Below are positions 3-47,207 of a stretch of 57,045 bases of DNA, in pieces. Source of the DNA: a virus. Lineage: Duplodnaviria; Heunggongvirae; Uroviricota; Caudoviricetes. The stretch spans positions 64,001-121,045 of IMG/VR virus record IMGVR_UViG_3300012983_000003; one strand, given 5' to 3'. The position numbers and the translations under genes were made by a program. The notes beneath the pieces are model-generated. The model worked only from the letters and a program-made list of their open reading frames with translations, searched no databases and had not been told where the DNA came from. Positions within the stretch are counted from its first letter, which is position 1. Each line of letters opens with the position of its first letter.

Positions 3-467
3 AGGAGTGATATTATCAATACCTTAAAGATTGAAGCCCTACTTGCTCAAAAATATGGGTATCGTCCCTTACCAGACGACTTATCTGGTAAATATCGTAA
101 TTTCTTCATCGAGAACATTCCTGACTTTCTCAATATAGACGGTGATACACAAACTTTATACACCTCACAACACACACCAGTTTGCAACGGATACGATAGA
201 ATTGTTGTTGGTGATTACGGTGCATTTATAGAGTTTTCAGAGGATGCTATTGCGTCAGATTTTGTTATTGAAAATGGTCAAGAATATAGAGTTAACGATA
301 AGAAATATTCAAAATCGGTTAAATATGTATGGCTAACAACAAAAGACGGAAGCCATATTAAGATTTATCTTCAAAAACGCAAGGTAACTTATGCTGATTA
401 TAGACCGCATAAGTATTATATCAGTGTTCACGAAGTTACTTTAGCAAAAGAACGAAAGGATACATAA
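3..467 (+). CDS. Hypothetical phage protein (~151 aa), missing from the ORF track because it has no ATG/GTG/TTG
   Basis: Stop-free frame 3..467 (INTLKIEALLAQ...RIVVGDYGAFIEF...YADYRPHKYYISVHEV...) whose TAA overlaps the dUTPase ATG (TAATG). AAGGAG at 2-7 precedes ATT(12)/ATC(15); the frame may also extend left of the window. Confidence 0.7.
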   Translation, partial: RSDIINTLKIEALLAQKYGYRPLPDDLSGKYRNFFIENIPDFLNIDGDTQTLYTSQHTPVCNGYDRIVVGDYGAFIEFSEDAIASDFVIENGQEYRVNDKKYSKSVKYVWLTTKDGSHIKIYLQKRKVTYADYRPHKYYISVHEVTLAKERKDT

Positions 468-952
468 TGGTAATTAACATTAAGAAAACAGATAGTAATG
501 CTACTATCCCCACGCGCGGTTCTGACCGTGCCGCAGGTTTCGATTTATATTCCAATGAAACATCGGTTCGTATTCCCGTTGGCGAAACCAGACTGATTGG
601 TACTGGTGTATGTATGGAAATTCCCGATGGTTATGCAGGTTTGGTTTACGCACGAAGCGGTCTTGCCTCTAAGCGCGGTTTACGACCTGCGAATTGTGTA
701 GGTGTTATCGACCCCGATTATCGCGGTGAAATTAAGGTAGCCCTACATAATGACTCTCAAGAGTGTCAGACAATCCACATTGGAGACCGTCTTGCACAGA
801 TTGTTATTACTCCGTTCTTAGCCGTTGACTTCAACGAAGTCGATGAGCTTAACGAAACCGACCGTGGCGAAGGTGGTTTCGGAAGTACAGGTGTGAACAA
901 AGAACCCACGCCTGAGTACGAACAACTCTCTTTATTTGACGCTTCTATATAA
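467..952 (+). CDS. dut: Trimeric dUTPase
   Basis: Motifs AGFDL, ARSGLA, GVIDPDYRGEI, GDRLAQ, RGEGGFGSTG; C-terminal extension ending QLSLFDASI. Confidence 0.97.
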   Translation: MVINIKKTDSNATIPTRGSDRAAGFDLYSNETSVRIPVGETRLIGTGVCMEIPDGYAGLVYARSGLASKRGLRPANCVGVIDPDYRGEIKVALHNDSQECQTIHIGDRLAQIVITPFLAVDFNEVDELNETDRGEGGFGSTGVNKEPTPEYEQLSLFDASI

Positions 953-968
953 CAAATAAGGATTGAGT

Positions 969-1139
969 ATGCAGAATAAAGAACTCACTTCTGCTCACTC
1001 AAATAAGATTTATGCTGCGCTTAAACTAATTGAAAACCTCTATAAACAAGGACTCATTGACCAACACATTTTTATAAATATTCTCAATGATTATAAGAGA
1101 TGCGTCGATATATCTGATTTCAGATGTCGCACTCAATGA
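969..1139 (+). CDS. Small 56-aa protein upstream of the serine recombinase
   Basis: ATG 969 after AAGGA, TGA 1137-1139; MQNKELTSAH...LIENLYKQGLID... Short helical ORFs of this kind often precede large serine recombinases. Below the ORF-track size cut-off. Confidence 0.6.
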   Translation: MQNKELTSAHSNKIYAALKLIENLYKQGLIDQHIFINILNDYKRCVDISDFRCRTQ

Positions 1140-1173
1140 TATATACATACCCAAATAGAATAGGAGGATATGA

Positions 1174-3036
1174 ATGTATCAAGGTCTAATTGAGAGTCCA
1201 GAAATGCGTAGGGTTGTAATTTACGCAAGAGTTTCTACAGAGCACGAAGCTCAACTTTCCGCTTTGGAAAACCAGAAAGATTGGTACAAACCAATCCTTG
1301 CTCAACATCCAGAGTGGGAAGTTATAAGAATGTATGTTGATGAGGGTATAACTGGAACATCCGCAAAGAAGAGACCTCAATTTATGCAAATGATTGAAGA
1401 CGCTGATTACGGCGAATTTGATTTGATTTTAACAAGAGAGGTCTCTCGTTTTGCCAGAAATACGGTTGATACCCTACAATATACACGAGAGCTTAAATCT
1501 AAAGGCGTAGAGGTTTACTTTATCAACGATAATATCCGTACATTTGATGGTGATGGTGAATTAAGATTGACCATTATGGCTACCTTAGCACAAGACGAGA
1601 GCCGTAAGACTTCCGTTCGCGTTAAGAGTGGTCAACAAACATCAATGGATAACGGTGTTTACTACGGTAACGGTAATATACTTGGGTATGACCGTGTAGA
1701 ACAAATCGTCAACGGCAAGAAGCAAGTTGATTTTGTTATCAACCCCGACCAAGCACAAACCGTAAGAATGATATTTGACTGGTATCTTAGCGGTATTGGT
1801 ATCCGTGCTATTAAATTTCGCTTGGAACAGGAAGGAAGACTTACTGCGACCGGCAAATCAAATTGGCACGAAAGCAATATTTCAAAGATATTACAGAACT
1901 CATTTTACGGTGGTATTATTACTTATCATAAAGAGTTTGTCTCTGATTATCTCGAACAAAAACGAATTCGTAACTTTGGTGATATGGAATATACAAAGGT
2001 GCGTGGCAGACACGAACCAATTATTACCGAGGAAGAGTTTGATAAGGTTCAAGAGATGATTGCTAAACGACGCAGAGAACTGCCTACCGATGTATCAGGC
2101 AGAAGAAAACCTCTCGGAGAAAAGAGAGGCTGTGATGTTTGGACAGAACTACTTATTTGCGAATGTGGTCATAAATTTAATCGTAAAATATGGCATAGAA
2201 CCGATAATGAAACTCAGTATGGTTATCAATGCTATAGTTCAATAAGAAGTGGCTCTATAACAACCAGAATGAACAAGGGGTTATCTACTGAGGGTGTGTG
2301 TAGAACTCCAATGATAGCGGGTTGGAAATTACAGATGATGGTTAAGCACATCTTTAAAGAGTATTTACAGAACACGGTTGAAATTCTCGCCATTGCACAA
2401 TCAATGTTGGAAAAGCATATTGATGATAAACAAGACACCAAAAACAATGCTCGGTTGATTAAACAAAAAGAAGCCGAGATTGAAAAATTAAATAAGCGTT
2501 TAAATAATCTTATTGAGATGAGAGCAGACGGCGAAATTACTCGCGAGACCTTTCAGACCAAGAAAGAGGAAATCGAGACGCAGATTGGAAAACTCCAAAA
2601 AGAACTTATAGATTTGAAACCTCGAGAGAGGAAATCCACAGATGTTTCCCACGACGAGAAAATCAAAATCCTAAAGTTCTATTTGGAACAATCGGTAAAT
2701 CCAGATGCCGTTGAGAACATATCGGAAGATGTCATAAAGGCTTTCGTTACAAAAGTCGTTGTGAGAGAAGACGGTTTTGACTGGTATCTCAGATTTAGTC
2801 CCGATAATTCGCCAACCTCGTTAGGTATAAATGGTCGTAAAAAGAGTAATGCCACAATCTCCTCACTTCGTTTGCCGCAACACAGGCTGCTATTAACGAA
2901 AGTAGGAAAAAGTAATTTCGTCAAAGCACAAGAGTTCTCAATAGATTTAAGTCAAGCCAAGACTTATCTCTACGCATACTCTACAAGGCACAGAATTTAT
3001 AATTGGTTAGACCTGAATATTTCGGTATTCATTTAA
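1174..3036 (+). CDS. Large serine recombinase (integrase)
   Basis: Catalytic YARVST, REVSRFARN, recombinase domain (HEPII), Cys zinc-ribbon (CECG...YQC), coiled coil; AGGAGG SD. Confidence 0.95.
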   Translation: MYQGLIESPEMRRVVIYARVSTEHEAQLSALENQKDWYKPILAQHPEWEVIRMYVDEGITGTSAKKRPQFMQMIEDADYGEFDLILTREVSRFARNTVDTLQYTRELKSKGVEVYFINDNIRTFDGDGELRLTIMATLAQDESRKTSVRVKSGQQTSMDNGVYYGNGNILGYDRVEQIVNGKKQVDFVINPDQAQTVRMIFDWYLSGIGIRAIKFRLEQEGRLTATGKSNWHESNISKILQNSFYGGIITYHKEFVSDYLEQKRIRNFGDMEYTKVRGRHEPIITEEEFDKVQEMIAKRRRELPTDVSGRRKPLGEKRGCDVWTELLICECGHKFNRKIWHRTDNETQYGYQCYSSIRSGSITTRMNKGLSTEGVCRTPMIAGWKLQMMVKHIFKEYLQNTVEILAIAQSMLEKHIDDKQDTKNNARLIKQKEAEIEKLNKRLNNLIEMRADGEITRETFQTKKEEIETQIGKLQKELIDLKPRERKSTDVSHDEKIKILKFYLEQSVNPDAVENISEDVIKAFVTKVVVREDGFDWYLRFSPDNSPTSLGINGRKKSNATISSLRLPQHRLLLTKVGKSNFVKAQEFSIDLSQAKTYLYAYSTRHRIYNWLDLNISVFI

Positions 3037-3046
3037 TCACACAGTT

Positions 3047-3085
3047 AAGGGCTATGAGACTTCGGTCTTGTAGCCCTTTCTTTTT
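3047..3085 (+). terminator. Rho-independent terminator of the integrase
   Basis: 14-bp stem AAGGGCTATGAGAC / GTCTTGTAGCCCTT (2 G-U pairs), C(TTCG)G loop, followed by TCTTTTT. Confidence 0.85.
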
Positions 3086-3094
3086 ACCCTAATG

Positions 3095-3151
3095 ATAATG
3101 TTAATAATTATGAACAAAAACCGACCTTTTGTCTATAATTATAAACATTAT
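3095..3151. other. Candidate attP: 25-bp imperfect inverted repeat
   Basis: Arms 3095-3119 and 3127-3151 match 22/25 as reverse complements, 7-bp centre ACCGACC, directly downstream of the serine integrase. The function is inferred. Confidence 0.5.
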
Positions 3152-3165
3152 TCAAAGTGTCATTT

Positions 3166-3228
3166 TTGCACTTTGGAACCCTTGTAAATGTGCAAGAATT
3201 GCACTTTAAAACATTAGAAAATGTGCAA
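3166..3228. repeat. Two tandem 30-bp palindromic sites, TTGCACTTT-N12-AATGTGCAA, 33-bp period
   Basis: Copies 3166-3195 and 3199-3228 have identical 9-bp arms and different spacers. Confidence 0.8.
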
Positions 3229-3367
3229 ATAATAACACCCCGTAGAACGCGTTTTAAGGCTGTTTTTAGGGGTTTTCTGATTAGCCTACAACTTACCTGC
3301 CTAAACCCGAAACTCGCGTCAGAAACGAACTGTGTGGGCGTGGCGTAGGTTTAAAAGGTCGTCGCGC

Positions 3368-3405
3368 AAAAAAATGGAGACCAACCAATAAAGGTCAATC
3401 TCCAT
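3368..3405 (-). terminator. Terminator of the lysis operon
   Basis: On the minus strand an ATGGAGA...TCTCCAT stem followed by a T run (A tract 3368-3374), just after the stop at 3414. Confidence 0.6.
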
Positions 3406-3413
3406 CTTAATTT

Positions 3414-3986
3414 TTATTCTTCACCAATATCAATAACCTTAAGCAACTTCATTGCAGGCACGACATCCGTGTGCATATATCCGTTGCCGCCTGCGGCTTC
3501 GTATTCCGAATAAAGTTCCCAGAATGTTTCTGACTCTACTCGTGTCCAAGAACCAGAGGGGTTCGTGTTCGGATTGGTGTAGTAGCGATGACTTTGCAAC
3601 AAAGTGTCTCTCATCTTATTACGCTCTCTGCGAGTTTCTGTTTCTTCCATACGATGTACGGTTTCGCTCACAGTATTGAGTTGTGTAACGGTATCTTTGT
3701 GTAAATCTTTCAGTTCTTGAATTTGGCTTTCAAGTTTGTGCTGAATATCAATACTCTGTTGACGATACTGAGGATACTTATGTACGGCATCAAGTGCTTC
3801 TTTAATGTCGGCATCGCGTTGTTTTTCAATTTCAGCTTTTTCTAACGCTTCCTTTGCCTTGCTATCAAAGTGCTTCTTCACTTGCTTATAAATGCCCCAT
3901 AAGAACACGATTGCAAGAATAAGCTCAACTACTTGTAATACGGTGATATCACCGAAAATATTTAAAAATTCGTCAAGTCCTTTCAA
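3414..3986 (-). CDS. Holin-like / lysis accessory membrane protein
   Basis: One N-terminal TM segment (VLQVVELILAIVFLWGIY) plus coiled coil, C-terminal YEAAGGNG; last gene of the lysis cluster. TTG start after GGAGGTG. Confidence 0.6.
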   Translation of the reverse strand: MKGLDEFLNIFGDITVLQVVELILAIVFLWGIYKQVKKHFDSKAKEALEKAEIEKQRDADIKEALDAVHKYPQYRQQSIDIQHKLESQIQELKDLHKDTVTQLNTVSETVHRMEETETRRERNKMRDTLLQSHRYYTNPNTNPSGSWTRVESETFWELYSEYEAAGGNGYMHTDVVPAMKLLKVIDIGEE

Positions 3987-4425: not shown

Positions 4426-6378
4426 TTATTTTGTTCCTTTGCGGAAAATTTCAATCAAAGACTCAAGTAATTTCTTAATCACCTCAATAATGATGTTCAC
4501 AATCTTACTTGTGTCTTGTGTCTTTTCTGGTGTGTCAACAATATCTGTGGGCGGTGTAACGACAGGTTCCTTATCGGGTGTTTCCTGAGGTAACTCTGTC
4601 GGAAAATATTTTTCAATATCCGCATCTGTCACAGCCATACCTACAATCTGATTGTAAATCGCACGGATTTTCTGACCGTAAGTATTATTAGCAGCCATAG
4701 CCTTGGCGGGAGTATCGTATGTTTTTGTGTCATAGCCCGGGCAAGCCCATCTGCCTGCTAACTGTTGCCAGTAAGGTGCAATACCTCTGGTAACATATTT
4801 AAAACGCGGGTCAACTATCGTTTCATTTAAAGCGTCCTTAGAGCCATAAGCAAATAAATGTTGTAACTGTGCTGTTACACCATCTTCGATAGTATTAAAC
4901 TTACCACCCTCAACACCGTTACTTGTAACGCCGAGACCACAGTAATTATGCTGTTCTGGTGTAACCGCAGAACCCGCATATTTAAACCAGCCTGTCTCAA
5001 GAATAGACTGCGAAATAGCCATCACAGGGTCGATATTGTATTTGGGAGCGAGCTTCCAAAATGCTTTTGCAATTTCAACATCAAAACCACTATTGTTAGA
5101 AACAATCTTTTTGATTGCCTTTACACAGTCAGTCTCTGTGCGAGAAATACTTTTATCTACGATTAAGTTTTTCTCTGGGAAGTCTAAATCATATACTGCT
5201 ACAACCTTTACTTCCTCCTTGGGTTTCTCAACTTCAGGAGTGGGTTGTGTCGGCTGAGTAGGCTGAGTGGGTTTGGTTTCAGGTTTGGTTTCGACAGGTG
5301 CCGTGTATTCATATACAACCTTGTAGTTCCAGTCAAAAACCTTATATCCAGCTCCAGCCTTGTTACACGCATCTTTGGCGTTGTCGAGAACGCTATATGC
5401 GCCAACTTGGGATTTTGCGTCATCCTTGGACTTACGCACTCGATACAGCTTTTGAGTTGTATCTGTGGTCGGAGTTGCGGGCTTCGGAACTACATTCTCC
5501 GCAGGGTTAATCCAACCACCTGCGCTTGCTCCTGTCTTATCGGTGGAAATGTTATACATACCGTTATATCCGTTCGGATATTTGGAATAGATATAATATG
5601 TTCCAGCCTCATAAGTACCCTTACTGTTCTTTTTGCTTTGTGCGTCAGAAGCAGTAGCGTATTTGTTAATCTTAGTTACAACGGAATAGGTCTTCCCTGT
5701 GGTAGAAACAGGAGTAGATGTAGCAGACTTATCTGCCGCGAGTAATGCAGCAACATCCTTTCGTGCTGTAGCCATAGATTTGCCGTGCTTCGGGAACCAA
5801 TGGTTAACATCGCTATGATTGCTACCCATTCCAAGTTTGTAACTGTCTTGGTGACAAAGAATTGTTGGAACCTTGACACCATTTACATTAACAGTACCGT
5901 TAGGGTCAATATTAAACATTTTGCAGAGGTACGCTGTGATTTCGCACGCCTCTTTATATACTGCATTGAAGTATGTTTTATCGGTTAAACCGTCCTCGCA
6001 AATCTCAAACTGTATCCAGCCAGAGTTGCAGGAACCCTTAGAACCACTACCACAACCCCACGGGCGATAATCCCAAGGCATAGTCTGGATTGTGGTGACA
6101 GTACCGTCGGCAAGTTTACCAATCCAACAGTTCAAGCCAGCCTGACGCTCAATATGGTTCCAGTCGTTCTTATAAGCGTTCTTACCAATCTGAGCGAGCG
6201 TAACAGTATCTCTTTTATCTGGCGTATCACTTGGTTGCACATAGCGTTTGAGTGTAGGATTATTCGCACCGGTGCTATGCCACAACACGCCCTTAACTGT
6301 CATTTTGTTTGTACCCTTATAACAGGTGCTGTTAGTTTGCATACAAACTAAAGGTTTGTTGGATGCCGTATACTTCAT
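4426..6378 (-). CDS. Endolysin: amidase_2 domain + cell-wall-binding/SPOR-like repeats + GH73-like glucosaminidase
   Basis: LWHSTG, FEICED, ILCH...HSDV (Zn amidase); P/T linker; AISQSILETGWF...HNYCGLG (glucosaminidase). The real start is ATG 6378 after AAGGAGG, not 6444. Confidence 0.9.
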   Translation of the reverse strand: MKYTASNKPLVCMQTNSTCYKGTNKMTVKGVLWHSTGANNPTLKRYVQPSDTPDKRDTVTLAQIGKNAYKNDWNHIERQAGLNCWIGKLADGTVTTIQTMPWDYRPWGCGSGSKGSCNSGWIQFEICEDGLTDKTYFNAVYKEACEITAYLCKMFNIDPNGTVNVNGVKVPTILCHQDSYKLGMGSNHSDVNHWFPKHGKSMATARKDVAALLAADKSATSTPVSTTGKTYSVVTKINKYATASDAQSKKNSKGTYEAGTYYIYSKYPNGYNGMYNISTDKTGASAGGWINPAENVVPKPATPTTDTTQKLYRVRKSKDDAKSQVGAYSVLDNAKDACNKAGAGYKVFDWNYKVVYEYTAPVETKPETKPTQPTQPTQPTPEVEKPKEEVKVVAVYDLDFPEKNLIVDKSISRTETDCVKAIKKIVSNNSGFDVEIAKAFWKLAPKYNIDPVMAISQSILETGWFKYAGSAVTPEQHNYCGLGVTSNGVEGGKFNTIEDGVTAQLQHLFAYGSKDALNETIVDPRFKYVTRGIAPYWQQLAGRWACPGYDTKTYDTPAKAMAANNTYGQKIRAIYNQIVGMAVTDADIEKYFPTELPQETPDKEPVVTPPTDIVDTPEKTQDTSKIVNIIIEVIKKLLESLIEIFRKGTK

Positions 6379-6395
6379 ATATACCTCCTTAAATA

Positions 6396-6429
6396 CAAAA
6401 AGCCCTTTATGTCGCGTGACATAAAAGAC
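6396..6429 (-). terminator. Putative terminator upstream of the endolysin
   Basis: Stem around TTTATGTC-GCGT-GACATAAA, followed on the minus strand by TTTTTGT. Confidence 0.5.
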
Positions 6430-6485
6430 CAGTTTTATATACAAAAAGGAGCCTATATTTCAAGACTCCAATTTGTATGCCTTAT

Positions 6486-6938
6486 TTAGTTTAGAGACCA
6501 TTTATAATGTGGCTTATCTTCTTTGAAAAGCCAGTAGCGTAAATAGTCGTCAAGAATAATAGCTATGCCAACCAAAAATAGCCAAGCAACAGCAAACGGT
6601 AGGCATATCTGTCCAAATAGATTGAATGGTGCATCTGAGTAATCCCAAACACCGAGACCGAGCCATAGGTTAAGTATGCACCCAAATATGAATTCAAGCA
6701 CCAATACAATAGCGGTGCCTATAAAGGTCTGTATAATAAATGGAGTATCCCACGAAAGATATTCGTTAATTGCCCCGATAGCAAGGAAACACAGACCGCC
6801 GAGAATAAACATAGTCCAATGTGTAGGTGTGCTACCTCTCAACGCTCTCCATAGAACTTCGATGAGTAAATACACCGTTCCACCAACGCTAAATAATATA
6901 GCGGGCTTCAGAACCTTTTTCACATTACTCACCACCAT
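6486..6938 (-). CDS. Four-TM membrane protein (CmpB/'putative ABC permease'-like family)
   Basis: Four hydrophobic helices; pattern IEVLWR...HWTMF.LGG...LEF.FG.ILN...WDYS..PFN..GQIC. The start may be GTG 6923. Confidence 0.65.
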   Translation of the reverse strand: MVVSNVKKVLKPAILFSVGGTVYLLIEVLWRALRGSTPTHWTMFILGGLCFLAIGAINEYLSWDTPFIIQTFIGTAIVLVLEFIFGCILNLWLGLGVWDYSDAPFNLFGQICLPFAVAWLFLVGIAIILDDYLRYWLFKEDKPHYKWSLN

Positions 6939-7683
6939 TCGCAGCGAGCATTGTCTTAAGTACCTCGGATTGATGTTCCTCGGGAATAGCCATACCGTAC
7001 TGAACGGCGGCTACAGATTTCTTTCGTTTCAAACTGTTAATATACATTTTTAAGGTATTGAAATAAGAAACCTGATATGTTTTAAATTGAGTTGCTGTTG
7101 TAATAATGGTGTTGATATCCTCTGCGGAATAAAACCTACATAACTCATCATCGGCGTGATAAGGGATGTGTGTTTCGCCATTAGCAACCATAGAAGACAA
7201 AGTAATAAGATTGAGTTGGTCTTGTGTAGTTAAAGAGAAGTGGTACTGATTACCGTCGCTCAAAATTACATCAAAACCATTTGTAATGATTTGATTACAT
7301 ACATAACTCATTTCGTTAATCTTTGCTTCTTTAAGATAATCGAGAGTTACTTCTTCGATGGGGTCAATTACGGGAGCTTCTTCGACAGGCTCATTTTGTT
7401 CCTGTTCAATTTCAATCTCTTCTCCCTTTTCAACAGCGGCAAGTAATATGTCGTATTCGTCTTTCTCAATTCTGACTAACTCAACCGTTTCATAGGAGAC
7501 TGTATCGGTGGTAACAGGAACCATCCAATCTGCACGATAGAATAAATCACCGCATTGAACATACTGAGCACGCTCTTCATCACAAGCTAAGATAATACTA
7601 TGCCTGTGTTGGAATTCACGGAAATTATGCTGAGTAGCAATTCCAACGAAATTCGTGCCACTTATCAGTTTGTAATAATTCAC
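6925..7683 (-). CDS. Tail-fibre-associated protein (DUF4376-like C-terminus)
   Basis: LKEAKINEMS..CNQII..GF.V...HFSLT..DQ.NL...YHAD..LCR.YS pattern typical of small genes following phage fibre genes. Confidence 0.55.
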   Translation of the reverse strand: MNYYKLISGTNFVGIATQHNFREFQHRHSIILACDEERAQYVQCGDLFYRADWMVPVTTDTVSYETVELVRIEKDEYDILLAAVEKGEEIEIEQEQNEPVEEAPVIDPIEEVTLDYLKEAKINEMSYVCNQIITNGFDVILSDGNQYHFSLTTQDQLNLITLSSMVANGETHIPYHADDELCRFYSAEDINTIITTATQFKTYQVSYFNTLKMYINSLKRKKSVAAVQYGMAIPEEHQSEVLKTMLAANGGE

Positions 7684-8917
7684 CGTTCTTACCTCCCTTG
7701 ATATGTTCGTATTTCTTGGTTAATTTATAACCATCAAATAAATCATTGTAGAGTTTTAACATATTCCTTTTCGCGTGATATGACATCGCAACTTTTGTAT
7801 GAGCGAGCCACGACTGCATCGAATTATAAACATCGTCCAGAGTCATACAGCCGTCATCAACTAAATGTCTGAATTTCTTGAGCTTGCGTCTCATACGCAC
7901 AATTCCAGCTTTAGTGAGAGTGCTGACGATTTTGCCGGTGGGAGTAATTCTATAACGAACTTTCATAAACACAAAACCACGAGTAGATTTAACAACTCTT
8001 GTTTTCTTATCATTAAATGTCAGTCCAAGTTCGTCTGCGATTTTCTTCATTTCGGCATACAGTTGATGTAAGGTTTCTTTATTATCCGAGATAACCATAC
8101 CGTCATCCATATATCTGATATAATGTTTAAACTTTCTATGGTCTTTAACATAATGGTCTAATTTGTTAGGAACAACCAAAGCCATTATCTGCGAGATTTG
8201 ACTACCGAGACAAATACCGTGAGACTGATTATTATTGAGTCTCTCCAGAAGTTTATCTCTTTCTTCTCCTGTATAGGTTCTGTTAATGACAGACTTTTCA
8301 TAGGATTTGATGATAGCCATAGTTAAACCCTTAATGTATCTATCGGTAAAGTTTTGATTAAGTACATCGAGGCAAGTTTGGTGTGGGATGCTATCAAAGA
8401 AGCTCTTAAAATCAAAAGTTAAAATATAGAATTCAGAGCCATATTCCTTTACAGCTTTTCGCAAATGACCGACTAATCTCTTTCGTGCAAAATCTACGCC
8501 TTTATCTTTCATACTTGCGCCATTATCATAAATCAATGAGTTTTGTAGCACAGGCACAAGAGCATTATCGCATAGAACACGCTGAGTCATACGGTCTCTG
8601 ATTGTAATAGGTACAATCTCTCTACGCTTACCTCTTTCATACAGTACAATACGATTAACGCTCGATAATTCTGGCAGAACACCGTTCTTCAAACTCTTTA
8701 CTGTTCTGTCGATTTCTACAATAGCGTTATGCGTATATTTTTGAACGCTACCTTTCCAACTAACACCCTTTCGACACTTTCCAAGAGCCTCAACAAAGTG
8801 TTGCATCGTGATAACGCTGTCGAAGTTATCATTATATTTAAACTTTTCAGAGCGTATCTCTGCTTTACGCTTTTTATCGCGCACTATTCGAGCTCTTGCT
8901 CTTTGGTATTTTGTCAT
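7625..8917 (-). CDS. DGR reverse transcriptase
   Basis: DFKSFFDSI, GICLGSQISQ (DGR-type G..SQ signature), YIRYMDD; basic N-terminus; AAAGGAG SD. Confidence 0.97.
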   Translation of the reverse strand: MTKYQRARARIVRDKKRKAEIRSEKFKYNDNFDSVITMQHFVEALGKCRKGVSWKGSVQKYTHNAIVEIDRTVKSLKNGVLPELSSVNRIVLYERGKRREIVPITIRDRMTQRVLCDNALVPVLQNSLIYDNGASMKDKGVDFARKRLVGHLRKAVKEYGSEFYILTFDFKSFFDSIPHQTCLDVLNQNFTDRYIKGLTMAIIKSYEKSVINRTYTGEERDKLLERLNNNQSHGICLGSQISQIMALVVPNKLDHYVKDHRKFKHYIRYMDDGMVISDNKETLHQLYAEMKKIADELGLTFNDKKTRVVKSTRGFVFMKVRYRITPTGKIVSTLTKAGIVRMRRKLKKFRHLVDDGCMTLDDVYNSMQSWLAHTKVAMSYHAKRNMLKLYNDLFDGYKLTKKYEHIKGGKNGELLQTDKWHEFRWNCYSA

Positions 8918-9241
8918 AACTTCAACTCCTTTTGGTATTTGATGTTACCCCGCACGGCTGATTTATTAACTGTTGGTTATAGCCGCAAATAGACTTGTGA
9001 CATCTCAAAAATAAACAGTCATATTATTAAGACGCGCCTACAAACTAAGGCGTTATACTATCTCGCAAGTATAAACGGGATGCTTTCATAGCATACACCT
9101 CTTAAACAGAGGTGTGTTTTATTTACTGCGATTTATCACAGAGGGTTATATTCTCCTTCTCATATATTAAAATCAACATTCCTATTTAATATGATTTCAT
9201 CTCTTTCGCCCTCATTGCGTGGTTACTCAATATATGAAAAT

Positions 9242-9347
9242 CAGGGGCAAACGCCATTCGAGTTGTTGGCGTTGTTGTTGTTGACGTTACCATTGTTGTT
9301 AACATTCCAGAAGTTAGTGGTGTTACCAATATTAGGCGAACGCAACC
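9242..9347 (-). repeat. DGR template repeat (TR)
   Basis: Reads LRSPNIGNTTNFWNVNNNGNVNNNNANNSNGVCP in the VR frame, with 15 AAY codons and 33 adenines; aligns without gaps to the VR. Confidence 0.97.
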
Positions 9348-9417: not shown

Positions 9418-10212
9418 TTATTTTAAGTTTTCAAAACGACGCTTATCTGATTTTTGTAAACCAGTTAATAATGTTATCTCTTTAACCAACATATCCGACC
9501 ATTCACGCATAATGCGTTCACTGTACTGCATCAGGTTAAAATACGCTAACATTCTTCGGTTCATCTGTTTAAGACAGGATATAGCTTTTGATATGTACTT
9601 ACTGCGTATGATATATTCATCTTTAGTAGTTGGAATTTTCTGATTTGCTTTCATTACATTATTAAAAGCGTCATCAATCAGACTTATCAATAACGCACCC
9701 TCGGTGTCGTCATAACATACCGATGCGTTCAGCACCTTGCTATATGTGTATCTGTGTAGGTTTGACATATTTCTCAGGAACTCTACCGTATGAATTTTGT
9801 CCCAATCTAAAATCATAATTTCTACACTCCTGTCAGTATTGTAAATTAAGTTTAATAAGGAGATTTCTTTATCGATAAACTCGACCCAATGTGCCATAGT
9901 TTTGGTTTTGTAATGTTCAATATTCCACAATACCATTAGGTGTTTATCTAACGATTGTAATAGGTCAACCGACTTTTCAGACAATCCTTGAACATACTTG
10001 ACTTTCTCACACTTATCACGGAAGTAGCACTCATTGATTTCCATTATATTTCGGTACACCCTATTCATAATAATATCAATATCGGTGCTCAACCACCGTC
10101 TCTTCCTTTTAGGTAAGTGAGCAGTCTTTTCTCTGCTAAACCTATATAGTTGCATAAAAGTATTCTCGAACTCTGTGTCAGAAATACGCCGCTGACTCCT
10201 AATTACAGACAT
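9418..10212 (-). CDS. avd: Avd-like accessory protein, tandem double domain (264 aa)
   Basis: Located between VR and TR. MSV.RS.R N-terminus and KSDK.RF C-terminus of Firmicute Avd; the two halves align (EF..L.R / N.M..N / M..W...KEI.LL). Confidence 0.85.
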   Translation of the reverse strand: MSVIRSQRRISDTEFENTFMQLYRFSREKTAHLPKRKRRWLSTDIDIIMNRVYRNIMEINECYFRDKCEKVKYVQGLSEKSVDLLQSLDKHLMVLWNIEHYKTKTMAHWVEFIDKEISLLNLIYNTDRSVEIMILDWDKIHTVEFLRNMSNLHRYTYSKVLNASVCYDDTEGALLISLIDDAFNNVMKANQKIPTTKDEYIIRSKYISKAISCLKQMNRRMLAYFNLMQYSERIMREWSDMLVKEITLLTGLQKSDKRRFENLK

Positions 10213-10271
10213 AATGAAAACCTCCTTTGGTTCTACTCGTCGGGCAAGCCGCCGAGATATTTTTATATATG

Positions 10272-10299
10272 CCCGCCCGACGCTTACGCGCCGAGCAGG
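10272..10299 (-). other. GC-rich hairpin downstream of the VR (candidate DGR target-recognition hairpin)
   Basis: 12-bp stem on the minus strand (9 Watson-Crick + 3 G-T) with a GTAA loop, 22 nt after the target stop, not followed by a T tract. Confidence 0.6.
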
Positions 10300-10320: not shown

Positions 10321-13300
10321 TCAGATAGAGAAGCAGGGGCAAACGCCACCCGAGTAGTAGGCGTCGCCGTTGGTGACGCCACCATAGCCGTAAACACCCC
10401 AGAAGCCAGTGGTGATACCAACATAAGGCGAACGCAACCACCAATATTGTGCCTGTATCCATCCGCCGCCGATTGCTGCGGTTGCATTAGGCGTAATATT
10501 GTATTTATCCAGAACCTCTTGTGGCTCATAGATATATCCTCTGCTACTATCGTCAGAGTCAAGCCAGATATCACCAGCCTTAATTACATTTGTGCTAACT
10601 GTAGACGGGTCAGATGTAGCCGAGAAGAATTTTACATCATCAGGGATAATCAAACCTTTAAACTTAAGTCTATATCTATCTGATGTATACCAAGTGATAT
10701 AATCACCCTCACTTGCATACGGCTCACTCGAGTTATTATTCATCTCAGTTGTCGAGGCTAAATAAACATTGTCTTCCGATACAATGAGTTCACTTGATTT
10801 ATTGCCAGCAGAAGCGTTGATTTTCACCTTTTTCAACATAGACTTCCATACAGTTGGCAGCGCATCGTATATTCTTGTATTCAAGAAAGTACGCATCAAC
10901 GAAGCATCCCAGCCACCGACATTGGTATTGGTTGAATTCATCCAATAAGTTCTACCTGCAAGTAAGTGATTACAAATAAACGAAGCATTGGATTTTTGGC
11001 TCGTACCACCAGCTAATCTGTATCTCTCAGACCCACAGAATTCCATTCTCAACGGCTCGTGATACCAAGTTGCTAATTGCTTACAGTTGGTATCTCCAAT
11101 GTCGTCATACCAAATTTTACACCAGTGAATAATACCTGTACCATAGTCATCATAGCCACCATCACTGAAACGAATACCGCCGAACGAGATGGCTTCGTCC
11201 GTATTTGTACTACGACTTCTGGTAATTTCAGCTCGAATTGTTGCTGCGCTAAATTGTGTTTTTGCGTCTGTACCGTTAGAGGCATACACATATAATTTAT
11301 TTTCGCCTTTACGATGTCTAATGACTACAATGTCACGCTGTAATCCACTACCAAACTCTTGTTTGACATCGCCCCACTGTATATTCGGATTAGAATTATA
11401 TCGTAATCTAAATCCCTCGGAGCCATCTTCTTGGAATGTAGAAACAAGCGTATTATTAACATCTGTACCAGTAAATTGATAATCAATCGCCAATGTAAAG
11501 CTTCTTTCATTTTCACCAAAAAGTTTAACTTCTGTCGTAGTCGCAGTAGTACCGTCAAGCACGAGATTTTCTGCAAGCACCTCACTTGGTACATTTGCAA
11601 AATTAAAGTCGTGACCAAGTGTAATGTCGGTGTAGTCTTTTAATGCAAAATAGTTTGCTGTTTTACCAGACGCTACCACAGCATTGATTTCGGCTACAGA
11701 CATCTCCTCGAGGTGTTTACCACCTTCTACGGTAGGTAATGCGGGTAAGCTTGCTCTTTCCCAGATAGCATATACATCTGTGTCGCCACGGATATAGCCT
11801 GTGCTCTTATCCCAACCGGCAAACACATTGTAAATAGCGAATTCTTCCTCGGTTGTATTTGTAGGAGTTGCGCCAGTATAAACAACCTCGCTACCGTAAG
11901 TAGCCTGTGTAGAGCCGAGAGATAAGCCAGCTCTCGAATACCAAGTTACCGTGTAAGTACGAACAGTCTTGGTGTATTTAGCCTTAACGGTACGCTTCGC
12001 AAGAACAGCACTTGTAATTTCATCCCAGCCACTACCTGCGACATATTCGCCGTCTGTAGTCGTGCCGAACTCGTAAGTATATTGCTCGTCGCTTGCCTTG
12101 GTAGGCTTAGCAATCCAGCCTTCTTTATACGGGTCGGGCGGTGTGGCGTTCTGGTCAACATAAACTTCATATAAAACTGTGTTTTCATCATCATCGTTCA
12201 CATAGGTGATAAGATGCTGAGGAATTAAGTTTGCGGGGTCATAAGTAACTTCCAAGTCAGACCAAGCAGCCGCATAATTTGCGAGTTCCTGATTTCTGAT
12301 AGCGCCACTTACATATACCTTACCGCTAAGCGAAGTGTTGTTCATAGCAAGGATTTCGTTGAGAAGTGTACTGTCGGGAAGTGTCCAATCGATACCTGTG
12401 AGTCGGAGTGTTTGTAAGGTATCTTTTGCATCAACAACGATAGCGTACTCATCTACGATAGAGTTTTCCTCTGTCAAAGACTCAAGGTTATCATAAGATA
12501 CTTGTAAGTCTGTTAAGTAGTTAAGGTTACGCATCGACAAAGTGTTAATGGTATCAGGTAAGTGAGCAGTCACAATCTTACCGTTCGGTGCAAAGATAAC
12601 ACCAGTAATTGCGGTGCCCTCGGCATAGAATGTTTCGAGGTTGCCACAACTTGTAAGGTTGACAGAGCCGATTAAGTTCGGGCAGTTCTTGACATTCAGT
12701 TCCTGAAGCAATGCGTTATTACCGATATTAAGTTCAGTTAAGAAACTGTTAGCATAACCCTCGGTGTCATTACCGATAATTAACTTCTGAAGCTTAGAAG
12801 CCTTAGTGAAGTCGTTATCGTGAATATAACAACCAGAAAGGTCATTAAGTTCCTGAATTTTAGACGAGCAGTAGATGAGGATTGCAGTATCATCCATCTT
12901 ACCACTTAAGGGGTTCTTGATTTCATACTCAACACCCGCTTTTGCACGAATTTGCATCGGGGTAGCAGAGTTACCATAGAGAACCGAAAGGTACATATCT
13001 GCATAAGGAACAATCTTAAGGTCATAATTCGGGGTTACAACCGCTTCGGTAGGCGTATTACATCTGAACATAATCTGGTCAGCCTTAACAGAAGCAGCGA
13101 CATATTTGGTGCCCATATAGGCTTCTTGGTCGCGTTCCCATTGTCTACGGTGGTATCTCTTACGACCATTCATCATAGTCTCTAAGAAACGCTTTGTACC
13201 ACCTTGATATGTACGATAATATTTACGCTCAATATCGAGCTTCCAAAGTTCTTCGCAGAACATTTCTTGCCAAGTATCGAACTGAGAAATTAAACCGCTT

Positions 13301-16300
13301 GCGCTCCAAGCACCAGCACTTTCTCTATTCAGATACATAGCTTGTAATTGAGGATACATAAGGTCACGAATACGACAGAAGAAAATACTTTCAGCAGCGT
13401 TATAGATGTAGCCAGAGTTCGGGTCTCCGTCTGTTCTGTAGTCAGTATCTTCCTTACCATAGGTCATTGTCATCTCACCGGAGTTGTTAATACCTATTGC
13501 CGTGTCGTTATCATAATCCCAGAAGTCAAATCGGTATCCATTACGGATAGCGGCTGCTTCATTATCGATGGTGTACCACTCAGCCTTATCGCCTAAAGCC
13601 TCGGCTTCTGCTTCACTGATATAAACCTTAGCATAATGCCAGAAAGTGTTTTTAGCACGGTTATCGACCATCGTGTATCGCTCGGTGAATAAATACATAT
13701 ATAAGGATGCTTCTTCGATTGTCCAGTCTTTCAGCTCGTTAACGAACTCTTCGTCTGTCGAAGTAATAATCCATTTATAAAAGTCATTCCATACCTGAAT
13801 GTTAGCAGCTTGTTCCTCATCGGTGATATCGGCGTGCTCATATCTGAACTCAAATGTTTCATCCCAGTTACCATAGAGTGAGTCATAAGCAGTGTTGCCT
13901 GCAACCCATTGAGACTCAGAAATAGGATAAACCTGATTACCACTTGCGTCTGTTAAACCAGACGGGAAAATGGAGTTAGGTTTAGTATTATCGGAAATCT
14001 CAACTACGAACTCATTGTGGTCGTCAGGGTCGTATGCACGAGTAGAGTCAGTATCTTTAGAGTCACCAATATTACCAAGGGCATAGAAGTGCCAGTCGGT
14101 ATCGTTGAACTCTCTGTGTGTAGAGAGGTCGCTGTTGTTCTCGCGAACAAACACCACGCAGTTCACAAATTCCATAGTTGTCTTTGCGTTCGGGTCACGC
14201 TTTTGAGCAACAGTTGTATAAGGTAAGAACTCGTGGAAACGCTTTTGGAGTAAAGCGTTATTTGCGTTTTCAGACGAAGCGATATTTACCTTAATATTAA
14301 ACAAAGCGTTAGGAACAGAGGTACGGGTTAAAGCAACCTTACCTGTGCCATCAGAATACTTTGTACCATCGCCCATAGTTAATTCGGTAATATAATCGGG
14401 GTCGTATGTAGTATTCTTGTTTGTATATTCTCCGTCAAAACACATATAAATGTTAAGGTTTCTACCGGCGTATCCATATTCATTAGAAGTTGTACCCTGA
14501 CCAGAATGGGCAGCGTTAATCGCTTTCCAGTTGTCAAGTGCAGTATCACCGTTCTTGTGGATACATTCGATAGTTGTATTTTTGATGATTTCCTTTTTAT
14601 CCTGAGTAAAGTAAGGACAATCAATCTTAATAATCTTTAAGTCAGGACACGCAGATGCAACGAACTCAGGAGTAATCGCGTTATTTTCGTTGTAAATATC
14701 GTTACGCTCATATCTTGCTATCATAGTATCGGAGTCACGAGAGTCAGCGATAAAGTTAGAAAGAATGTCCGCGTCACTTAAAGCAGAGGTATAAGCCTTC
14801 ATACGATAGATGTGGATATCACAGTCGTCAGAGCCGATTGTAATAGGCACAGGCGCAAACTGATAAAGTCTGTGTGCCGCATCGTAAATAAGAGGTCTGA
14901 AACCAACACCGTCTTCATAACTCATAATAACTGCTGTTGCAGTTGCATCTTCGGTATCAAGAGTGTTGATATTGAATTCCATTTCAACGATGTCGTCTTC
15001 GCTGTAAGGAATATATAAGGGGTCGCTACCCGTTGCACTTGTCTTCAAATAAGCCGCGTGAGCGTTCATTTCTAAACCAACGACCGTGGCGTCGGATTGA
15101 CAAGACAAGAATGTTGCATCGGCATCACGAACGTTAGTGGCTTTGAAAATAACTTTAAATTCAGAGCCATACAAACTTGCATCTCTTTCAAACAAGTTAT
15201 AGTTAATAACAGCGCGAGTACCTGCCTTAACACAGAAATACTGGTTGCCATCATCATCTAACTGATAACCACCGTTAATCCAGTCGAAGTCGTCAGATAC
15301 AGTCATAGTCACGCCTGTATTAGCATCAGTCCATAATCTGTTTTCGCTGGTGTTGGATAAACCAGTGGGGTTAAAGTCAAACGCAAGATTTGCAGTTACG
15401 GGAGAAACATCAATACCAAGCTCGGCAATATCCATAACAATCGGTACAGAAACATCACGGCAAGAGATAACAAGGTTATGGTCGCCAATAACATCGGTCT
15501 TATAAGACCAAGTATTAGATGTAGATGTTAATGTTTCGGTCGCTACAACAGAGCCGTCTGCGGTATGAGTAACCGTAGGTGTGCCTGTGTTCGGGTCAAA
15601 CACATAGTAAACGATGTTCGTGGTGTTATACTGCTTAGAGGGAACCTTACCGTAATGGTCATATCTGTAGATACAGCCAATAACGGGGACATCAGACTCA
15701 TCATCAAACCAAACAATATCCTTGAAGATATGGTCGGTTTCAATATCGATGTTGTTTACGGTTGCAGTAATGTAACACTCGAGTAAGTGAGCGCCGTGCT
15801 CTTGTGCCGGTAACGAATACGACTGTAAAGTACCAGAGGCAGAAGTAACAACGGGTTCAAGCTCTTCACCGTCTAAAATAAAATGAACCGTCTTAGAGAC
15901 GGAACCGTAAGGAGTATATGTAAAGTTGACCGAGTTACCTGCGGGGTATGTAATTCTATCACTGAAAGCAGACTCAAGTCGAACATCGACAACCTGCACA
16001 GTCCAAGACTTAACATTCACGCTACCGCCGTCATCAACAACAGTAAGGGTGAACTTCTGAGTACCGATGGAAACATATTCGGTCATATCAAAGGTGTTTT
16101 CGCCCTGAACGAGAGCGCCAGTCATAATAGTGGAACTACCAAGTTTCCAAGTGTAGTTACCGTCAATTAACTCGCCGTCAGAGTCGGTAGAAGAATAGTT
16201 GATTTTGATTTCAACTTTATCTGTTGGTGTTGCGATAATAGGAGACGCTGTGATACGGTCAACAACAAGGTTAGTAGTTGTGGTTGTACCACCACCGCCA

Positions 16301-17982
16301 CCGCCCGCGATTACGAACTGGCTCTTAACCTCTTCTTTGCCGTCCTTACACTCCCATAAGGTAAATACATTGTCTGCCTCGTCGCCAGTAAGCAATGTTG
16401 CTCTACCGTATGTTGCATAATATGTATATCCCTCAACATCCAGATTTCTCATTTCTTGCTGTAACTGTGTAACAGTGCCGCTTAAAGACTGAATGTTGGT
16501 TGCGTTACCTGCGATATTCTGAGCGTTCTTATCAATGCTTTCTTGGAAAGCAGCAATCATCTCATTGATTTGGTCTTTTGTGTAGCTATCGCCACCAATT
16601 ACGCGAAATTCTCCGTTAATAAATCTGTAATGTGTGTAAGCACCACTATCCTGATTAACGATATAATAATCGGTAAATTCACTACCTTTTTCAATATCTG
16701 GTAAAGCCGAGCCCACATACGCGAGAGAACCCGCAATAATCTCCCAATAACCCTCGATGTATTTATAATATAAATAACCAGAGTTTGTTTTAAGGATATA
16801 GTCAACATCTGGCTCTCCGACTTCAGGTAATGACTCTACAACAAGTGTAGAAGAACCACCGAATACATCCCAAGTTTTATTACCAACCTCATCTGTAATA
16901 TACCAATACTTATCATATCCGGTACCAGAGTCTTTGGGAATAAGATAGAATGTCTGCGAAGCACCAGCCGCGGGGAGCTCGTCAACAATTTCAATAGTAA
17001 ATGCGTTATATTCTGCAAGTAATGCCTGCATATAACTTCTTGATAACGCAACAGAACCTCTCAAGGCATCGCCAAGCTTCTGATACTTTAATGTATCTGT
17101 TAAAACATAAGCATCTGCAATTTCATTCTTAACTTCATCAAGATTATACTGAACCATATCAGCACGACCTTGTGCATACGAATAAACATCAACCTTAAGG
17201 TTTTGAGTGTCATATACATTAGGCTGCATAGCAGTTTCAGCCTTGCTTAAAGTAGACTCAAAATCCGCATCAACTTTACTACGAGAAATACTACCGTCTT
17301 GGATAGTTAAATTAGCAAGCTGACCGCTGGCAAGATAGTCTGCCATTTCTTCAATAACTGCGTTTTCAATCAACTCAGCGATAACCTCGTTATTTGCTAA
17401 CTCGGTGACTTGAAGCTGTAAGTCGTCTACTTGCGCTTGGTCAGCCTTCAGCGCGATAGCATTTGCGTTGGCAGTTTCGGCTGCCTTTGCTCTGGAAATC
17501 TCGCTAATTAAGTCAGCTTGCGCCGCTTTTCTATTGATTTGAATTTGTAAATCCTTTTGTGCGGCTTCAATATCGGCAACGCTTTGGTCATTCCAAGAAG
17601 TAACTGCGTTAATTTTGGTAACAAGCTGATTGTAGAGAGACTCCGAAATTTCTGTGCTACTTGCGTCAGAAATTAAAATATTTTCGTCAACACGCAAAGT
17701 AAGATAGTTGGTTGTACCTATGGTTGTTTCGTGACTACCATAGAGCATCAACGTACAAGTACCAACACCGATTTCAGGCGGTAAGAAAACACAATTATCT
17801 TCATCAAGATACTGGTTATACGCCGTACCGTTCTGCCTAAACTGCGCGAATGTCATTAAGCCGTCCCATTCATCAGTTAAGTTAAATTGAAACTTAACAA
17901 ACTGTTGAGAACCCGCCACGATGCCATCCATTGTTGAAGACATATACATCTTTTGGTTGACGACATTTATGAGTATGCTCAT
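10321..17982 (-). CDS. Giant multidomain tail fibre / receptor-binding protein, DGR target
   Basis: BppU-like N-terminus, three ~40-aa repeats, Ig-like folds, LamG-like domain, CotH-like kinase region, LRRs, InlB-B-type repeats, C-terminal DUF6273/CLec-like domain with WWLRSP and the VR. Start ATG 17982 after GGAGG. Confidence 0.88.
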   Translation of the reverse strand: MSILINVVNQKMYMSSTMDGIVAGSQQFVKFQFNLTDEWDGLMTFAQFRQNGTAYNQYLDEDNCVFLPPEIGVGTCTLMLYGSHETTIGTTNYLTLRVDENILISDASSTEISESLYNQLVTKINAVTSWNDQSVADIEAAQKDLQIQINRKAAQADLISEISRAKAAETANANAIALKADQAQVDDLQLQVTELANNEVIAELIENAVIEEMADYLASGQLANLTIQDGSISRSKVDADFESTLSKAETAMQPNVYDTQNLKVDVYSYAQGRADMVQYNLDEVKNEIADAYVLTDTLKYQKLGDALRGSVALSRSYMQALLAEYNAFTIEIVDELPAAGASQTFYLIPKDSGTGYDKYWYITDEVGNKTWDVFGGSSTLVVESLPEVGEPDVDYILKTNSGYLYYKYIEGYWEIIAGSLAYVGSALPDIEKGSEFTDYYIVNQDSGAYTHYRFINGEFRVIGGDSYTKDQINEMIAAFQESIDKNAQNIAGNATNIQSLSGTVTQLQQEMRNLDVEGYTYYATYGRATLLTGDEADNVFTLWECKDGKEEVKSQFVIAGGGGGGTTTTTNLVVDRITASPIIATPTDKVEIKINYSSTDSDGELIDGNYTWKLGSSTIMTGALVQGENTFDMTEYVSIGTQKFTLTVVDDGGSVNVKSWTVQVVDVRLESAFSDRITYPAGNSVNFTYTPYGSVSKTVHFILDGEELEPVVTSASGTLQSYSLPAQEHGAHLLECYITATVNNIDIETDHIFKDIVWFDDESDVPVIGCIYRYDHYGKVPSKQYNTTNIVYYVFDPNTGTPTVTHTADGSVVATETLTSTSNTWSYKTDVIGDHNLVISCRDVSVPIVMDIAELGIDVSPVTANLAFDFNPTGLSNTSENRLWTDANTGVTMTVSDDFDWINGGYQLDDDGNQYFCVKAGTRAVINYNLFERDASLYGSEFKVIFKATNVRDADATFLSCQSDATVVGLEMNAHAAYLKTSATGSDPLYIPYSEDDIVEMEFNINTLDTEDATATAVIMSYEDGVGFRPLIYDAAHRLYQFAPVPITIGSDDCDIHIYRMKAYTSALSDADILSNFIADSRDSDTMIARYERNDIYNENNAITPEFVASACPDLKIIKIDCPYFTQDKKEIIKNTTIECIHKNGDTALDNWKAINAAHSGQGTTSNEYGYAGRNLNIYMCFDGEYTNKNTTYDPDYITELTMGDGTKYSDGTGKVALTRTSVPNALFNIKVNIASSENANNALLQKRFHEFLPYTTVAQKRDPNAKTTMEFVNCVVFVRENNSDLSTHREFNDTDWHFYALGNIGDSKDTDSTRAYDPDDHNEFVVEISDNTKPNSIFPSGLTDASGNQVYPISESQWVAGNTAYDSLYGNWDETFEFRYEHADITDEEQAANIQVWNDFYKWIITSTDEEFVNELKDWTIEEASLYMYLFTERYTMVDNRAKNTFWHYAKVYISEAEAEALGDKAEWYTIDNEAAAIRNGYRFDFWDYDNDTAIGINNSGEMTMTYGKEDTDYRTDGDPNSGYIYNAAESIFFCRIRDLMYPQLQAMYLNRESAGAWSASGLISQFDTWQEMFCEELWKLDIERKYYRTYQGGTKRFLETMMNGRKRYHRRQWERDQEAYMGTKYVAASVKADQIMFRCNTPTEAVVTPNYDLKIVPYADMYLSVLYGNSATPMQIRAKAGVEYEIKNPLSGKMDDTAILIYCSSKIQELNDLSGCYIHDNDFTKASKLQKLIIGNDTEGYANSFLTELNIGNNALLQELNVKNCPNLIGSVNLTSCGNLETFYAEGTAITGVIFAPNGKIVTAHLPDTINTLSMRNLNYLTDLQVSYDNLESLTEENSIVDEYAIVVDAKDTLQTLRLTGIDWTLPDSTLLNEILAMNNTSLSGKVYVSGAIRNQELANYAAAWSDLEVTYDPANLIPQHLITYVNDDDENTVLYEVYVDQNATPPDPYKEGWIAKPTKASDEQYTYEFGTTTDGEYVAGSGWDEITSAVLAKRTVKAKYTKTVRTYTVTWYSRAGLSLGSTQATYGSEVVYTGATPTNTTEEEFAIYNVFAGWDKSTGYIRGDTDVYAIWERASLPALPTVEGGKHLEEMSVAEINAVVASGKTANYFALKDYTDITLGHDFNFANVPSEVLAENLVLDGTTATTTEVKLFGENERSFTLAIDYQFTGTDVNNTLVSTFQEDGSEGFRLRYNSNPNIQWGDVKQEFGSGLQRDIVVIRHRKGENKLYVYASNGTDAKTQFSAATIRAEITRSRSTNTDEAISFGGIRFSDGGYDDYGTGIIHWCKIWYDDIGDTNCKQLATWYHEPLRMEFCGSERYRLAGGTSQKSNASFICNHLLAGRTYWMNSTNTNVGGWDASLMRTFLNTRIYDALPTVWKSMLKKVKINASAGNKSSELIVSEDNVYLASTTEMNNNSSEPYASEGDYITWYTSDRYRLKFKGLIIPDDVKFFSATSDPSTVSTNVIKAGDIWLDSDDSSRGYIYEPQEVLDKYNITPNATAAIGGGWIQAQYWWLRSPYVGITTGFWGVYGYGGVTNGDAYYSGGVCPCFSI
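10334..10439 (-). repeat. DGR variable repeat (VR) at the 3' end of the receptor-binding protein gene
   Basis: 21 mismatches versus TR in 106 nt, all at TR adenines (14 A>G, 6 A>T, 1 A>C); encodes LRSPYVGITTGFWGVYGYGGVTNGDAYYSGGVCP. Confidence 0.97.
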
Positions 17983-18024
17983 TTGCAATCCTCCAATCTT
18001 TATTCATTTCGGTAATACAATGTA

Positions 18025-47017: not shown

Positions 47018-47207
47018 GGTCTCCAGCCCCTTTCTTTACCGCCTTGTTACCCTGATTACGAACTTCATCAAGGTATTTCATTACACCCTTGGACTCCTCG
47101 CAATAGTAACGATGGCGTTTAGATTTCTGCTTCATTGTTCTAACGATATGAGCCTTCGGGAAGCGCTTTACAATAGCTTCTTTTTCTTGTTTAGAAATAG
47201 CAATCAT
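46995..47207 (-). CDS. Small basic hypothetical protein
   Basis: 70 aa, K/R-rich (KQKSKRHRYY). Confidence 0.65.
   Translation of the reverse strand: MIAISKQEKEAIVKRFPKAHIVRTMKQKSKRHRYYCEESKGVMKYLDEVRNQGNKAVKKGAGDHTNRAKS

Follow-up and report, generated by a model that had tools for sequence, protein, structure and literature searches.

The DNA analysed here, a stretch of 57,045 nucleotides that we call the window, is the 3' portion of a virus record that is complete at 121,045 bp and bears direct terminal repeats. On its minus strand it carries a DGR cassette that runs from a target gene with its VR through a double-length Avd gene, whose product we call P0001, to the TR, a spacer and the reverse transcriptase (RT). 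The features of this cassette, including the two halves of P0001, are as follows.

10321..17988, minus strand: DGR target gene, encoding a 2555-aa protein of tail-fibre or receptor-binding type (open reading frame; homologous large frames lie upstream of the double Avd in related loci)
10328..10439, minus strand: VR, in the 3'-terminal part of the target gene, with 5 nt between its end and the target stop codon at 10321-10323 (repeat comparison with the TR)
10238..10282, no strand assigned: GC-rich inverted repeat in the gap from the target stop to the avd start, with 8-nt perfect arms CGTCGGGC/GCCCGACG
9418..10212, minus strand: double-domain Avd gene for P0001, 264 aa plus stop (open reading frame; PHROG 3206; member of a family of ~265-aa proteins)
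9838..10212, minus strand: N-terminal Avd-like domain, aa 1-125 (AF2 helices 12-31, 35-61, 67-99 and 103-124; structural matches; conservation)
9805..9837, minus strand: inter-domain linker, aa 126-136 (helix-free in the AF2 model, with pLDDT down to 73 in the 121-130 block)
9421..9804, minus strand: C-terminal Avd-like domain, aa 137-264 (structural matches over residues 138-259; consensus comparison with single-domain Avds)
9236..9347, minus strand: TR, a 112-nt direct repeat of the VR
8918..9235, minus strand: non-coding spacer between TR and RT, 318 nt
7625..8917, minus strand: DGR reverse transcriptase, 430 aa (RVT_1, E 7.5e-18; belongs to the double-Avd RT clade)

The RT and the TR/VR pair identify the cassette as a DGR, and P0001 occupies the Avd slot, beside the TR and RT and on the same strand. 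Over their 112 nt, TR and VR differ at 23 positions, 22 of which fall on TR adenines (the TR has 34), and this concentration at adenines implies that the DGR has been active. The spacer is predicted to form several hairpins, with a stability above that of all 100 shuffled versions (z -2.7), and it is presumed to be the counterpart of the BPP-1 Sp RNA. An Rfam search of the TR and spacer region gave no credible match. The BPP-1 spacer is 140 nt long. The inverted repeat may act as the DGR hairpin downstream of the VR.

Further genes accompany the cassette. A 252-aa gene at window positions 6925-7683 (minus strand) overlaps the 3' end of the RT gene and weakly matches DUF4376 (E 4e-5); a homologue with the start M.YYK[LI]INGxxFVG follows the RT in 19/19 loci found with a double Avd. 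The gene may be a conserved cassette neighbour or a tail-fibre-related gene. Beyond it, at 4426-6444 (minus strand), lies a 672-aa endolysin-like frame with a low-complexity linker rich in Pro, Thr, Gln, Glu and Lys, downstream of a holin-like 150-aa frame, and these two fit the Gram-positive (Clostridia) hosts suggested by matches in metagenome-assembled genomes (MAGs). The INPHARED phage collection held neither a DNA nor a protein match.

A sequence-only reading of this gene had described a 264-aa frame with two alignable halves, and every motif pair on which it drew (NIMEINE/NVMKANQ, WNIEHY/FNLMQY, MAHW/MREW and KEISLL/KEITLL) is present in the open reading frame at 9418-10212, as are PKRKRR in the first half and KSDKRRF in the second. 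By BLASTP, residues 1-135 match residues 125-264 with an E-value of 1e-7 (23% identity over 84 residues), and a profile-profile comparison of 40 N halves with 40 C halves (hhalign) gives a probability of 99.4% and an E-value of 2.6e-21 over 123 aligned columns. Judged from these alignments, the internal repeat is far beyond chance and the halves are homologous to each other. In the AF2 model, the full chain forms two four-helix bundles, at about residues 12-124 and 137-259, joined by a linker of ~12 residues (pLDDT 89.8, pTM 0.86). The protein is basic throughout: P0001 has a pI of 9.25, and across the family the mean is 9.0 in N halves and 8.8 in C halves. The C half is the better conserved (54% mean column identity vs 41% in the N half), and the most conserved positions of the family, M1, V3, R8, E14, R36, N190, R203 and D256, are spread over the two. 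Specifically, the N domain has a conserved, predicted-disordered N-terminal arm (M1, V3, R8, S11, E14, F15) and a basic PKRKRR loop with P34 and an invariant R36, and the C domain retains an AN..P..T motif (N190, P194), R203 and an SDKxRF tail (S255, D256, R259, F260).

That each half folds as an Avd-like bundle is borne out by structural comparison, in which the same four PDB entries (2gsc, 2rld, 4dwl and 8ub7_B) head the matches of both. The comparison (VIA) was exhaustive, covering ~48,000 PDB representatives, and the top four matches of the whole-chain model all align to the C half, at residues 138-259, with Z-scores of 16.5 (2gsc), 14.5 (2rld), 13.3 (4dwl) and 13.2 (8ub7_B). Folded alone, the N half reaches 13.4, 13.3, 12.2 and 12.0 with these entries in the same order, and the next unrelated chain scores 10.9; Z-scores under ~13 are common among helical bundles, and the margin of the N half over generic bundles is modest. 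The four-helix-bundle fold of bAvd is thus found in both halves, by a small margin in the N half. Of these entries, 4DWL is the BPP-1 Avd and 8UB7, like 8UBE, a bRT-Avd-RNA complex; 2GSC and 2RLD are S23p, or 23S rRNA intervening-sequence, proteins (PF05635). Foldseek returned only E-values above 0.1, though with good TM-scores for 2gsc.

At the level of sequence, the profile PHROG 3206 ('Avd protein of DGR') matches the whole protein in two stretches (E 1.7e-5) and the halves with 1e-3 and 0.013. Neither Pfam (PF22296 bAvd and PF05635 23S_rRNA_IVP) nor NCBIfam gave an Avd match, whether with P0001, its halves or 40 C halves as query, and no PDB chain was matched in sequence by the family profile. 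Single-domain relatives of 134-137 aa, found by exhaustive phmmer searches, match either half and sit in canonical DGR cassettes (in one, L024: target, 135-aa Avd, gap, 372-aa RT); one of them, P0174, matches PF05635 at 2.7e-4, which is below the gathering cut-off. The ESM Atlas clusters of the double-Avd family carry only unnamed 'hypothetical protein' entries from Uroviricota. Measured against the usual small basic Avd (~128 aa, pI ~9.5), P0001 is basic and twice the size, whereas avd genes are described as 'of similar length' (Wu et al. 2018, PMC5758913). P0001 is a diverged relative of the Avd/S23p fold with an Avd role, one that departs from its kin in lacking a match to the curated models and in exceeding the single-domain size of ~128 aa.

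Could the double length result from faulty annotation or assembly, or from two neighbouring avd genes that fused by accident not long ago? In its favour, a single DGR that has two avd genes is on record (Wu et al. 2018), and some database proteins of 116-135 aa match one half only. The locus survey nevertheless refutes this explanation, which we regard as extremely unlikely. The frame runs without a break here and in all related loci for which enough DNA is available, and the 161 matching representatives of 50%-identity clusters are mostly ~265 aa long and collinear, keeping this length down to ~21% identity. The fused form is found in 19/19 IMG/VR loci in which the protein was found and in 8/8 MAG loci, and its N and C halves form separate clades, so the proviso of the sequence-only reading that the gene might be a one-off fusion falls away. 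The 19 IMG/VR loci, on contigs of up to 171 kb, share the order giant target, double Avd, gap of ~450 nt, RT of ~430 aa and 250-aa DUF4376-like gene, most with a holin-like gene as well, and the cassette order is likewise kept in 32 loci found via the RT. Of the eight MAG contigs, two large ones sit in Treponema and Bacteroidales bins and are probably phage placed there in error; the others are assigned to Ruminococcus, Lachnospiraceae, Eubacteriales and Clostridia.

The apparent split forms were rejected. For the C-only proteins P0098, P0112 and P0137, the frame stays open until only a few bases from where the contig starts. The N-only P0114 belongs to a remnant (L118) that has neither C half nor RT, and in L119 the N half of the N-only P0120 abuts the C-terminus of the RT. 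In L023, a stop codon and an overlapping GTG start interrupt the gene and ~10 residues are missing, which we treat as decay and not as a working split. Finally, one contig is annotated with genes of 129 and 133 aa that lie 13 nt apart; a sister contig with the same C-half protein (L021) has a frameshifted RT. The one-half proteins checked stem from truncated contigs, as the C-only ones do, or from decayed DGRs, the N-only ones lying in deletion remnants that lack the TR and/or an intact RT. The decayed relatives at L023:5001-5689, L118:22-390 and L119:100-640 break near residues 113-115 of the N half, in the last helix of the N domain, which may mark a recurrent deletion or recombination point. 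Another locus, L028 (IMGVR_UViG_3300018878_001846), is 97% identical over its positions 1-2236 to window 5128-9181, from the lysin through the RT. It has no TR, double Avd or target, its upstream part consisting of unrelated minus-strand genes and a 43-nt match to window 47079-47121, and either rearrangement has left an orphan RT there or the assembly is chimeric.

The relationships among the domains point to an ancient origin of the double form. A domain tree was built from 40 halves of each kind, N and C, together with 10 single-domain Avds and 8 proteins matching one half (5 C-only, 3 N-only); in this quick tree of few columns, whose deep order is not fixed, each of the three groups, N, C and single, is a clade of its own (SH-aLRT 96, 95 and 95). 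The N and C subtrees are broadly congruent and have many sister pairs in common, which argues for one old duplication followed by co-divergence. The single-domain Avd consensus combines an MSV.K..R..S..F arm, a PKR loop, an AN..P..T motif and an SDKxR[FY] C-terminal tail, and the double Avd partitions these elements, with the arm and PKR loop in the N domain only and the AN..P motif and tail in the C domain only. We propose that a single duplication took place long ago at the base of one RT clade, whose sister clade would have kept ordinary Avds of 134-156 aa from the same subfamily. The C domain would have stayed near the single-domain ancestor, keeping the AN..P motif and SDKxRF tail; the N domain would have diverged further, yet kept its conserved N-terminal arm and basic PKR loop. 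With ring size left aside, we consider it highly probable that P0001 is an Avd-type accessory protein of an active phage DGR that arose by tandem duplication of an Avd bundle.

A survey of the RTs confirms that the double Avd tracks a distinct RT clade, as the sequence-only reading had proposed to establish. It covered the 80 IMG/VR loci with RTs closest to that of the window (37-99% identity), with the upstream gene classed by profile HMMs. This gene was a double Avd in 32 cases and a single Avd of 134-156 aa in 43, with one more cut at 111 aa, and in 6 cases none lay within reach. The RT tree separates 29 double and 2 'none' loci from 38 single and 4 'none' loci with an SH-aLRT support of 100. 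Three correlates accompany this split, all of them differences at the level of the clade and not independent events. First, double-clade RTs usually have an insertion of 24-26 aa (residues ~207-230 of the window RT) that is absent in the single-Avd sister clade, so that the distance from FDFK to GLxLGSQ is 66-68 residues in 23/26 double-clade RTs vs 42 in all 18 single-clade RTs scored. Second, they mostly have a longer C-terminal tail (~395-430 in the window RT), ending in ..LQxDKWxxxRW. Third, the avd stop and the RT start are separated by a median of 463 non-coding nt in the double clade vs 389 nt in the single clade, a difference of ~75 nt. The RT insertion and tail are candidate docking sites for the extra Avd domain. 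In one further locus, L035 (IMGVR_UViG_3300001598_001285), a double-clade RT (67% identity) makes up the end of an open frame of 1069 aa at 368-3577 and no Avd-like gene lies upstream of it; fusion, a missing stop codon and an assembly error are all possible there.

Set beside the best-known system, the BPP-1 Avd, P0001 shares the slot between a VR-bearing target and TR-RT, the basic character and the four-helix-bundle fold (Z 12.2-13.3 for its halves against 4dwl), and in both DGRs TR and VR differ specifically at adenines. It differs in having 264 aa and two diverged bundles in one chain, where BPP-1 Avd has 128 aa and one bundle, and in lacking a detectable sequence match to the Pfam model of bAvd. 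Its partner RT, of 430 aa, belongs to a clade in which most RTs have the internal insertion and longer C-terminal tail, unlike that of BPP-1, and the non-coding interval between avd and RT is longer than in BPP-1. Closer at hand, the single Avds of the sister clade (for example P0165 in L024, and those in L059-L107) have the subfamily, cassette order, arm, PKR, AN..P and SDKxR[FY] in common with P0001. There, however, one domain of 134-156 aa bears all four motifs that P0001 divides between two, and the accompanying RTs, 37-43% identical to the window RT, are without the 24-26-aa insertion. The S23p proteins (PF05635; 2GSC, 2RLD) are the best structural matches of both halves (Z 13.3-16.5); they are pentameric single-domain four-helix-bundle proteins that are not DGR components and do not match P0001 in sequence. 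DGR reverse transcription requires Avd, which in BPP-1 comes no closer to the RT active site than ~40 Å. By homology with BPP-1 Avd, P0001 would bind the RT and the TR-spacer RNA and would be needed for adenine-mutagenic cDNA synthesis.

How a two-domain Avd might assemble is a separate matter. BPP-1 Avd forms a pentameric barrel, in which the N-terminal extension of bRT contacts two of the five protomers and all five hold the essential Sp stem-loop at the narrow end (bioRxiv 10.1101/2023.10.23.563531). With two diverged bundles in each chain, P0001 cannot form a C5 homopentamer of single bundles of this kind. The sequence-only reading had offered two ways out, an even-numbered ring or the use of one domain per chain, and a model of three copies of P0001, built with a 110-row alignment, favours the former. 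It reached an ipSAE of 0.70 (runs 0.74, 0.70 and 0.68) vs 0.00 for the best control, a mark attained by 20/30 solved homo-pairs and 1/23 single-chain proteins, in a calibration made on two copies that is rough for three. The runs agree in at least 95% of contacts, with a partner pLDDT of at least 84. Since one copy was scored, the contacts are those of the scored copy: the confident ones run head to tail and pair C-domain residues 164-178 and 201-227 with residues 16-32 and 38-63 in the N domain of the next chain, and the scored copy uses both of its faces. The model supports self-association of P0001, though it may echo solved Avd pentamers. Conservation lends no support to the predicted interface, which is polar and more variable than the remainder of either domain (entropy 3.01 vs 2.63 and 2.86 vs 2.22).

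These contacts weakly favour an alternation of N and C bundles, in a ring or a polymer, over a homotypic ring built from one domain type. In the proposed arrangement, chains would join head to tail, each C domain packing against the N domain of the following chain, and every domain would stand in for one Avd protomer of a ring in which N and C units alternate. Three chains, giving six bundles, would be the smallest closed ring near a pentamer, a stoichiometry whose likelihood we place slightly below even. A homotypic ring would take the form of five chains around a pentameric barrel of C domains, with the N domains outside as adaptors for RT or RNA. The C half is indeed the better conserved, lies nearer to single-domain Avds by motifs and branch length, and has the stronger Avd fold matches, and the extra segments of the double-clade RTs could dock an additional domain. 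The three-copy model, however, is confident only in head-to-tail contacts between an N domain and the C domain of its neighbour, with no confident C-to-C' contact of the scored copy, and we consider such a C-domain barrel unlikely.

The self-association seen in the three-copy model, which passes its controls, also bears on a ringless arrangement, in which one chain would stand alone as a pseudo-dimer and supply the two neighbouring bundles contacted by the N-terminal extension of the RT. The two contacted protomers of the BPP-1 complex, and the confident inter-domain arrangement in the AF2 model of the whole chain noted above, would suit it; the essential BPP-1 stem-loop, which is held by all five protomers, speaks against it too, and it appears quite unlikely. 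A further-reaching reading is a six-bundle ring of three chains with alternating specialised domains that co-evolved with the RT insertion, the C-terminal tail and a longer spacer RNA, yielding a DGR ribonucleoprotein of different symmetry; as a whole, we put it forward as a tentative proposal that is somewhat more likely wrong than right.

No description of a two-domain Avd was found in the full-text literature covered, which lies outside subscription journals. New are the split of the RTs into a double-Avd and a single-Avd clade, the RT and RNA traits that go with it, the dismissal of split forms and the head-to-tail model. Because current Pfam and NCBIfam models miss the double Avd, its DGRs are likely scored as 'Avd-less' in surveys; the protein is a marker for one DGR clade in large phages linked to gut and rumen Clostridia. 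A natural, conserved lineage in which Avd units are joined in pairs and have diverged provides a genetic handle on the roles of Avd surfaces, with the N-terminal arm and PKR loop on one unit and the AN..P motif and SDKxRF tail on the other. The double Avd furthermore predicts a DGR ribonucleoprotein of non-pentameric symmetry, and if the alternating ring of three chains is true, the RT-contacting and RNA-contacting roles of Avd protomers would be hard-wired into its two domains.
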